Shown here in pieces: positions 2,911 through 4,619 of a DNA stretch of 4,619 nt. The position numbers and the translations under genes are program-made. Under the pieces are notes generated by a model that saw only the letters and a list, made by a program, of their open reading frames with translations, did no database searches and was not told the DNA's origin. This DNA comes from a virus (taxonomy: Duplodnaviria > Heunggongvirae > Uroviricota > Caudoviricetes). Position 1 is the first letter of the stretch. Every line of letters begins with the position of its first letter. The stretch is from the IMG/VR virus record IMGVR_UViG_2526164663_000051. One strand, 5' to 3'.

Positions 2911-4619
2911 TCAGCTGATACTGATACCTGCTGTGGATTTTTTCATCACCACAACCAGCAGATCGCTGATACTTGCTGTGGGATACCAGTTATTTACCAG
3001 CCATGCTGACACCGAAAACTCCAGCGTCATGTGACCGTGACCGGCAGGCATATCAATAACGCCACTGTAAATCAGCGTATTATCCAGCGCGGTACGGTTA
3101 TAAATTTCAGCACCGTTTTTCCGCACTATCAGACGGCATGAGGAGTAAATATCAGTATGCTCTCTCTCATGTTTAGCGCCGCTGAATGCCACCGCCGGAA
3201 TAACAATTTGCCGGTCAAACGGCTGATCGTCATAAACCCTGACGGTAATGGTCCCTGATGGCCACCGCTCCGGTGCACGGGAATCCCGGGGGAAAGCTTT
3301 GCCCACTGTTTTAACGAGATCGCCTTCAATCTGGTTCGCGGACAGTTTTCCCAGAACCCGACAGTTCTCGTTAATCGTGACGTTGTTGAGCGTCCCGGAA
3401 TTCGCATTCACGTTACCGCTGATATCAGCATTTCTTGCGGTCAGCCTGCCCTCCGGCGTCAGGGAAAACTCGGGGGATTGCCGGACGAGGTGATACTCAC
3501 CGCAAACAGCCGCTTCAGGAACACGTCGTTCATGAACAGCTGATTCCCCTGCGCCACAAATAACGGCGTGCTGTTGCCGTTCTCCGGATTTATCATCGCG
3601 ATACGGTCAGCCAGCAGCAGTATGTTGCTCAGTGGCTGGCCATCAGTATCCTCAATCCCTGCACCAATCCCGGCCACATAGGGAATGCCGTCTTTCGTTT
3701 TCTGAACCTTCAGCATGTACAGCGCAGCCAGGTCATCATTTGTGTCCTTCTGCACGCGCTGTATCTGCTGTATGGTGGCGCTCTGGTCCTCCAGCGTTTT
3801 GTTGACCGTCTGTGTGATTTCATTGCGGGTTTCCGTGATGCTGGTCTTCATCTCCGCCATCTCATCTGCAAGCTGGCTGTTGTCTATCAGCTCCCACAGC
3901 CCCTGAGCCAGATGCAGTTTTTCCTATTTCTCCCTGAAACAGTCCAGATACCCTTCTGCATCATTGCTGGCCCGGCCACTGGCTTCCACAAACGCAGATT
4001 TCCCCACCAGATTGACGCTGCGCACGTAAAACCAGAAATCCTTCCCGGGCTTAATGTGCGGGCCGGATACACTCCACTGACTGCCGGTCCCCAGATAACG
4101 GGCAGAGGTTTCCACCTGAGATGTGTCTGCGATTTTTGTCTCCGAAAACCAGAACTCAAACTGTACCGTCGGGTCATACACCGCAAGACGCGGGACCGCC
4201 GTTATCTGAAAATACCCCGGCGTCAGTTCAATGGTGGCGGGTTTTGCTGGTGCGTTAATCCTGAAGGTGGTGGTGGCCGGTTCGCCCTGCTGGCCATAAC
4301 TGTTAATTGCCCTGACTGTCAGGGTGTATTCCCCGAGCGGCAGACCACTGGAACGATGCTCTGTATCCGCAGTGATGGCGGTGGTCACCAGACGGCTGTC
4401 TTCTCCGCTTCCGCTGGTCAGGCGCAGACTGAAGCGCACACCCTTCACCACCCGCGGCGTGTCCCATTTCGCCTGTGCCAGATACTGACCGTCAGCTGCG
4501 CTCACCTCCACCGTCAGGTGCTGCACTGCCGGAGGGATGACGCTGTTCAGGGTGCCTGACTGCGGCTCAAAGCTGGCCCCGTTATCCACGATGGCTTCCT
4601 TTTCCGGTACGTGCTGCAC
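2911..4619 (-). pseudogene. J: Tail tip host-specificity protein J, C-terminal ~570 codons; 5' end outside window; broken by an in-frame TAG (3926-3924) and a 1-nt frameshift in a G5 run (3472-3476)
   Basis: Three collinear ORF fragments (3924..4619 and 3459..3860 in one frame, 2911..3411 in another) together align to the C-terminal half of lambda J from memory: ...DAEGYLD.F, DG..YVAGIG...ED...[65 protein letters not shown]....WPSGT.TV.V.DD.PFDRQIV, ending ...ISIS then TGA at 2913-2911. The TAG and the frame change are described in the findings. If both lesions are sequencing errors this is an intact CDS. Confidence 0.8.

Follow-up and report, generated by a model that had tools for sequence, protein, structure and literature searches.

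Does the J gene of a lambdoid prophage, the tail gene whose product ends in the receptor-binding domain (RBD), really lie broken in the genome of its Escherichia coli host, or was it broken when that genome was put together from reads? The question is raised by a stretch of 4,619 nucleotides (nt) from the IMG/VR virus record IMGVR_UViG_2526164663_000051, which we refer to at its full length as the window and which contains the 3' part of a lambda-type J. A preliminary description, made from the sequence alone, had reported that J changes reading frame at a G5 homopolymer (C5 on the coding strand), had read this as either slipped-strand inactivation of the RBD or a homopolymer sequencing error, and had suggested, together with an amber codon further upstream, a prophage defective for adsorption. 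Mutation and sequencing error proved to be the right alternatives to weigh. It is certain that, in the sequence as given, the absence of one base puts J out of frame, and the explanation that we favour, with a probability of about 0.6, is that this gap is a consensus error in a draft assembly.

The break itself is plain from the reading frames, which lie where the preliminary description had placed them. The minus-strand open reading frame (ORF) 3860..3459 closes at a TGA at 3461-3459, and J continues in another frame as far as the stop at 2913-2911. The upstream ORF matches positions 2-88 of the 139 positions of the Phage_Tail_Tip profile (E 3.5e-21) and the downstream ORF matches the complete Ig_GpJ_C profile (positions 1-135 of 135, E 3.4e-39); as these are consecutive parts of one protein family, the frame break is not a chance arrangement. 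Inserting one base produces a single frame of 569 codons, broken only by the upstream TAG, in line with the roughly 570 codons that had been anticipated. This repaired frame is identical at 562/569 residues to J residues 589-1157 of the O26:H11 strain 11368, and at 315/571 residues to lambda J 589-1132, with which it is collinear. At the break site lambda J reads GNPPAFSLTPDGKL (GGNPPAFSLTPDGKL), as had been quoted.

Where exactly the base is missing follows from a nucleotide alignment (MAFFT) of the window with three intact J genes, those of strain 11368, phage Stx1a_EH182 and phage Stx2a_1447. It contains a single gap, between window positions 3470 and 3469, the intact sequence being CCCCCGACGTTTTCC and that of the window CCCCCGA-GTTTTCC (in a longer view, GGCAATCCCCCGACGTTTTCC against GGCAATCCCCCGA-GTTTTCC), and the same gap appears when J of the syntenic prophage in strain 98E11 is compared by BLAST. 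What has been lost is a C, two bases beyond the C5 run and part of the Thr codon ACG; the run itself counts five in the window, as it does in all the intact alleles of the alignment. Ancestrally, GACG came after C5 (Pro-Pro-Thr), as opposed to GAG after C6, and the ancestral peptide was GNPPTFSL, where a C6 repair would instead give GNPPEFSL. Of the earlier wording that a base is missing at or next to the run, the second half therefore holds and the first does not, since the run keeps its wild-type five; likewise, reads with G6 are the wrong thing to expect of a sequencing error, as the intact homologues are also C5. By the Pfam boundaries and the domain scheme of PMC11101478, whose names we follow here, including the beta-prism "central straight fibre", the break, which corresponds to lambda J residue 946, is inside the Phage_Tail_Tip/beta-prism fibre and about 55 residues upstream of the RBD. 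It does not fall on the domain boundary to which it had been assigned, and it does sever the receptor-binding C-terminus, the downstream ORF holding the entire Ig_GpJ_C domain. Across the 900 bp of window positions 2970-3870, the gap and a single substitution are the only departures from the intact O26 allele, and thus there is no decay around the gap.

Apart from its interruptions, the gene has the features of the lambda gpJ family. The repaired translation contains Ig_J, Ig_J_second, Phage_Tail_Tip and Ig_GpJ_C in that order (E 1.7e-23 to 3.9e-41), and it matches the solved structures 8IYK (E 5.6e-87) and 9WCA ("A8 gpJ 713", E 8.8e-110) of the PDB; of the structures solved, 9WCA and those of lambda gpJ (8IYK, 8XCK) stand nearest to it. 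It lies upstream of lom-stf-tfa, an order that is also annotated in strains 11368 and 98E11, in one of the reference phages aligned over J, and in lambda. Its domains, its collinearity and its synteny make it a member of that family which lacks only the intact ORF, its frame being interrupted by the TAG at 3926-3924 and by the gap at 3469/3470 that leads to the TGA. Lambda gpJ (NP_040600; 8IYK, 8XCK and 8XCJ) has the same order of domains, namely two immunoglobulin-like/fibronectin type III (Ig/FNIII) domains, a helical shaft, a beta-prism fibre and an Ig-like RBD, and lambda shares the gene order J-lom-stf-tfa with the window. Unlike lambda gpJ, the J of the window has its frame broken at the equivalent of A946 and a TAG where lambda has I822, it carries 28 inserted residues in the helical shaft, and its RBD is of another specificity type, the closest PDB entry being 9WCA; additionally, its N-terminal 588 codons lie outside the record, beyond the contig end. 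The closest intact J is that of the prophage at 3.6 Mb in O26:H11 strain 11368 (WP_000514836.1, NC_013361.1 3616693-3620166), with 98.7% identity over 1,720 nt, followed over the same length by those of the long-tailed Shiga toxin (Stx)-converting phages Stx1a_EH182 (96.8%) and Stx2a_1447 (96.1%). All three are identical to the window round the lesion and have the same C5, but they read GACG and form a continuous ORF of 1,157 residues. Translated as written, the J of the window would shift frame, add Ser-Phe-Pro and stop, and the product would lose the foot of the beta-prism fibre together with the entire Ig-like RBD.

An exact look-up of two of its ORFs placed the window at the end of contig AIGR01000047.1 (39,692 bp, GCA_000250035.2), whose terminal 4,619 bp it gives in reverse complement. 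The strain behind this contig, placed by interpolation rather than by a lookup, is probably DEC10C, an O26:H11 member of the diarrheagenic E. coli (DEC) collection. Of the neighbouring accession prefixes, AIGP is that of DEC10A, and PMC5592225 lists AIGO under DEC9E and AIGS under DEC10D. The contig stops inside J and, beyond the prophage end, runs into ymdF, rutG-rutA and rutR, which places the prophage on the wrbA/rut side of the chromosome. The window is the J-lom-stf-tfa end of a lambdoid prophage that lies beside ymdF/rutG, towards wrbA, in a draft assembly of E. coli of the O26:H11 type.

How widespread is the gap? A 181-nt stretch round it matches 3,994 places in 1,489 of the 5,426 complete E. 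coli genomes searched, and the gap is present at none of them. The best of these matches are 99.5% identical, with the extra C as the sole difference, and this C is found in 82/82 records with at least 99% identity to the stretch. A 28-mer across the gap had no match in the GTDB representatives (which, with one genome per species, are a weak test for E. coli), nor in the IMG/VR or JGI metagenome contigs. At the protein level, an exact product look-up found the frameshifted product of 133 amino acids (aa) recorded on the source contig alone, and a similarity search with the 133-aa fragment returned short fragments only, none of which ended in GNPPSFP among the subset inspected. A shared or ancestral lesion was rejected, the gap being confined to the source contig across the E. 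coli, GTDB, IMG/VR and JGI searches. The preliminary description had entertained the idea that intact J homologues might share the two-frame arrangement; none was found to do so, the homologues being one continuous ORF, and the comparison with an orthologous prophage that it had proposed showed an intact J of 1,158 codons in the syntenic prophage of strain 98E11.

The part of the contig in which the gap lies is of doubtful reliability. O26 genomes carry 12-14 copies of J each, and the gap is located within 1.2 kb of a contig end that falls in this multi-copy gene. From the end of tfa to rutR, over 7,785 bp, the contig shows 0 substitutions and exactly 2 gaps in comparison with strain 98E11. 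Each is an under-called homopolymer, one (A6 to A5) within ymdF, a gene that is broken by it, and the other (T7 to T6) in the spacer between ymdF and rutG (L010 5646 and 5765). Among the 5,417 genomes that match this flank stretch, none has both gaps and two have one of them. The two under-calls are thus proven to be indel errors of the contig.

A second irregularity is found in J itself, namely the segment with the in-frame TAG. This segment of 30 nt is private to the contig, the best of 2,479 matching places in complete E. coli genomes being 95.5% identical over 131 nt. Two natural types of J allele exist at this position, type A with CTGGACTTTTTCAGAGGAGAAATAGGAAAAACGCAT (LDFFRGEIGKTH) and type B with CTGGGACTGTTTCGGGAAAAAATAGGAAAACTGCAT (LGLFREKIGKLH), whose local reading frames are offset by compensating indels; the window reads CTGGACTGTTTCAGGGAGAAATAGGAAAAACTGCAT, which starts as B less one G, passes into 15 nt identical to A and returns to B. 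This B/A/B patchwork puts ATAGG out of frame and so creates the TAG. At least four allele switches occur within 40 nt, by which the length is regained and the sense is not. Types A and B are found together in single O26 genomes, for instance in 98E11 (type A at 3.61 Mb, type B at 1.26 Mb). A pattern of this kind is what comes out of a column-wise consensus of mixed copies, and a history of recombination would be an unlikely source of it.

Mosaicism on a larger scale surrounds both lesions. Window positions 1-2670 equal the syntenic B prophage, 2970-3870 equal type A, and 3870-4619 alternate between types. In lom, the first ~125 nt (window 2722-2846) belong to a third allele type, with 97.6-98.4% identity to lom of other prophages, while the remainder is identical to the syntenic prophage of strain 98E11. 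There are three parent changes within 2 kb round J, and the three allele types occupy three separate prophages of the complete O26 genome E2865. The junctions in the window occur in no complete genome, where the best matches reach 97.3% for the J/lom junction and 93.8% for the 5' part of lom, and the hybrid 199-aa Lom protein is found on no other contig in an index of 153 billion gene positions from public assemblies. We had considered whether the 5' end of lom might result from read-mixing of the alleles in hand, an idea that was dropped as 29 of its bases occur in none of six references and the segment proved to be a third natural allele type. The lom gene is thus a hybrid of real alleles, which natural recombination and chimeric assembly would fit alike.

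A sister draft from the same collection, DEC10A, offers a useful parallel. Its syntenic contig (AIGP01000020.1, L020 697-3102) likewise ends inside J, and its J-lom region contains 11 single-base indels, of which several lie outside homopolymers and one falls in that ATAGG segment; J is broken up there into five ORFs, and stf was not called as a single ORF. In the 6 kb of unique DNA beyond, 98E11 is matched apart from 3 substitutions and a single further gap, the T7 to T6 under-call of the window's own contig. Frameshifts in cas3 and cse1 of three DEC drafts have also been described as possible errors of sequencing or assembly (PMC5592225).

Given these observations, it is most likely that the gap in J is itself one of the indel errors seen elsewhere in this contig and in the sister assembly. 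The case has the features of a draft consensus error: a private lesion, other private indels in the same contig, and a contig end that lies in a repeat with mixing of paralogues. We favour an artefact because the gap is private to one assembly and lies near a contig end, in a gene with about a dozen near-identical copies; because the neighbouring TAG lesion resembles a mixed-copy consensus, the contig has indel errors of its own and DEC10A behaves alike; and because there is no decay round the gap and the parent switches are absent from complete genomes. Several points weigh against this explanation. The lost C sits between an A and a G, and the two proven errors of the contig are under-calls in runs of 6-7. 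Furthermore, all the J paralogues examined are identical at the gap site, so that the mixing of copies alone does not create the gap. Real J frameshifts are common in decaying prophages, and one of them, in another lineage, lies only 4 nt away and is annotated as "frameshifted" by the Prokaryotic Genome Annotation Pipeline (PGAP). Finally, lom, stf, tfa and seven rut genes of the contig are intact, and hence the assembly is not uniformly poor. As for the adsorption-defective prophage of the preliminary description, this is not established. One draft contig of 2012 alone carries the two J lesions, near its end and in a multi-copy gene, the assembly has demonstrable single-base indel errors, and J of the syntenic prophage in the complete genome of a near-identical strain is intact.

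The one serious alternative, which is possible although we would not rank it first, is a genuine and recent one-base deletion that inactivated J in a decaying prophage and left it a pseudogene, in which case whatever particles were formed would be without a receptor-binding domain and unable to adsorb through J. J pseudogenes are indeed frequent in prophages of enterohaemorrhagic and enteropathogenic E. coli (EHEC and EPEC), many other broken J fragments exist in public assemblies, and a lineage with C4 in place of C5 proves that a single base has really been lost a few nt upstream in 8 complete RefSeq genomes. A true deletion is also favoured by two of the points already raised, the loss of a base outside a homopolymer, which is atypical of the proven error class of the contig, and the identity of the J paralogues at the site, which makes copy mixing alone insufficient. 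On the other hand, the gap is private to one draft contig and has no accompanying substitutions, the adjoining private TAG lesion resembles a consensus artefact, the parent switches at the contig end are in no complete genome, and the DEC10A draft has the same type of damage at other positions. Moreover, the syntenic prophage of 98E11, the strain with 0 substitutions over the 7.8-kb flank, has an intact J of 1,158 codons.

The C4 lineage came to light through the downstream 166-aa ORF, which is found on 23 contigs. Contigs with this ORF were suspected to share the gap; they do not, and the lesions in them differ. Three such loci (CP027335.1, JBIHKH01 and BDHN01; L005 9930-9960, L006 and L013) have C5 shortened to C4, reading GGCAATCCCCGACG, and this allele is 100% identical in 8 complete RefSeq genomes and also occurs in drafts from other laboratories. 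In NZ_CP074928.1 (2051970-2054908), the only copy inspected, PGAP labels the gene "frameshifted; incomplete", and the head genes of the prophage are deleted. The C4 pseudogene resembles the J of the window in having lost one base, within 4 nt of the same place, and in having the same stop and the same downstream 166-aa ORF. It differs in that the base was lost from the run itself, and in belonging to another prophage, chromosomal site and lineage; above all, the C4 lesion is certainly real, with at least 8 complete genomes and the drafts of other laboratories behind it, whereas the gap in the window has been seen once. In five further contigs (L008, L009, L011, L012 and L014) a deletion fuses gpW, at about codon 57, to J and leaves the 166-aa RBD ORF. 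One noisy assembly with this ORF (L007) is broken elsewhere and has lambda-like sequence at the gap site. Other broken J fragments are many in public assemblies, with frameshifts at several positions, for example at a G4 run 25 codons upstream. The remnants of the gpW-J deletions keep lom and stf and, where the contig is long enough, also tfa and an NleB-family effector gene; the one in L008 (3440-3510) adjoins potB, potA and pepT.

One could be tempted to group the gap in the window, the change from C5 to C4, a +1 variant and the gpW-J deletions, and to regard CCCCCGACGT (10 nt at the foot of the J fibre prism, with the run CCCCCGACG) as a recurrent indel hotspot at which the repeated uncoupling of the RBD reflects selection on resident prophages. 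If this were true, selection might silence adsorption while keeping the downstream cargo, or the site might act as a crude contingency switch. We consider this very improbable; neutral decay and sequencing error offer an alternative account of the same lesions.

Scarcely any weight should be given to a change in the length of the G5/C5 run by slipped-strand mispairing, whether mutational or acting as a reversible contingency switch for the RBD, although the run lies 2 nt from the gap, is shortened to C4 at other loci, and may have gained a base in a protein fragment (P0044) that fits an extra base at or beside it. The run in the window is as long as in every intact allele aligned and the gap lies in GACG, so that alignment with the three intact alleles and with the syntenic one refutes a homopolymer origin here and the reading of the C5 run as a contingency locus, conceivable in general, does not apply to the window. 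Five bases are short for phase variation, and J fragments have frameshifts at several other positions. Slipped-strand change at this run does exist, but in another lineage and another prophage, and there it looks clonal: 8/8 complete genomes come from one accession series, 7 of them have the allele at ~2.05 Mb, and the prophage inspected is degraded.

Nor can the two frames be taken for an expression strategy, be it a programmed -1 ribosomal frameshift, in which the frame could in theory be regained if tRNA-Pro slipped by -1 from CCG to CCC, or a split gene whose 166-aa RBD ORF, left behind by three lesions (the gap in the window, C4 and the gpW-J deletion), is expressed alone: the zero frame reads AAT CCC CCG AGT, and T CCC CCG does not have the heptamer pattern X XXY YYZ, the downstream stretch of 94 nt folds with -24.4 kcal/mol (z = 0.10 against shuffles) and has no Rfam match, the two-frame arrangement is found in no other genome and homologues are single ORFs, the upstream TAG would stop translation before the site, and the 166-aa ORF is merely what follows the first GTG after the stop. 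With no heptamer, no structure and no conservation, programmed -1 frameshifting is excluded for practical purposes, and a separately expressed RBD lacks support; the tail assembly chaperone G/GT of lambda is alike only in changing frame in a lambdoid tail gene, and it has a conserved slippery heptamer and a frame arrangement that is kept in all relatives, of which J in the window has neither.

The biological weight of the gap in J is small. Should it not be an artefact, it would be an ordinary and very recent pseudogenising deletion, adding one more inactivated tail gene to the many defective lambdoid prophages of EHEC and EPEC. The case does call for caution in another respect: where a strain holds a dozen lambdoid prophages, the contigs of early drafts that end in J-lom can be pieced together there from paralogues and carry private indels. 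Pseudogene calls, inferences of host range and labels such as "defective prophage" that are drawn from such contig ends are unreliable unless they have been checked against reads or a closed genome.

The features of the window are collected in the table below.

Coordinates of J, its lesions and the neighbouring genes in the window.
Feature	Position	Strand	Remarks
J, 3' 1.7 kb, lambda-type	4619..2911	-	stop at 2913-2911
J 5' fragment, Ig_J and Ig_J_second domains	3924..4619	-	starts at contig end
J private hybrid segment with in-frame TAG (3926-3924)	3916..3946	-	a -1 and a +1 change enclose ~7 out-of-frame codons
J middle fragment, alpha-helical shaft and most of central straight fibre	3459..3923	-	Phage_Tail_Tip PF09327; called ORF 3860..3459, 133 aa
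C5 run (G5 on + strand)	3476-3472	-	length as in intact J genes
Missing-base site, GA-G against GACG (Thr ACG) in intact J	3469..3470	-	MAFFT and BLAST; equivalent to lambda J A946
TGA closing the shifted frame (...GNPPSFP*)	3461-3459	-	ORF reading
J 3' fragment in the other frame, end of fibre prism and Ig-like RBD	2911..3468	-	PF12421; called ORF 3411..2911, 166 aa, GTG start
lom (Ail/Lom outer-membrane protein), intact, 199 aa, two-allele hybrid	2245..2844	-	Pfam profile search and ORF
stf side tail fibre, collagen-like repeats, intact	867..2180	-	ORF and Pfam profile search
tfa-like tail fibre C-terminal domain / assembly protein, intact	596..865	-	ORF and Pfam profile search
AntA/AntB antirepressor N-terminal remnant, prophage end, adjoins ymdF-rutG in contig	1..360	+	ORF and Pfam profile search

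The tail genes all lie on the minus strand, in the order J-lom-stf-tfa. At the prophage end, the syntenic copy of the antirepressor remnant in strain 98E11 is annotated as an incomplete pseudogene. The stf gene is near-identical to that of the syntenic 98E11 prophage, with 7 substitutions clustered at 1620-1769, in a region rich in Ala, Ser and Glu. The collagen G-X-Y repeats of stf (867-2180) form two stretches, and its last 64 residues (PF06820) recur in the small tfa-like ORF that follows (596-865). A GC-rich hairpin with a T run is present 3' of J, at window 2870-2895 (gggcgtcagaaatgacgcctttttt), and another 3' of lom, at window 2195-2225 (cagcccgccggttcaggcgggctttttt); from their sequence, the two look like intrinsic terminators flanking lom.

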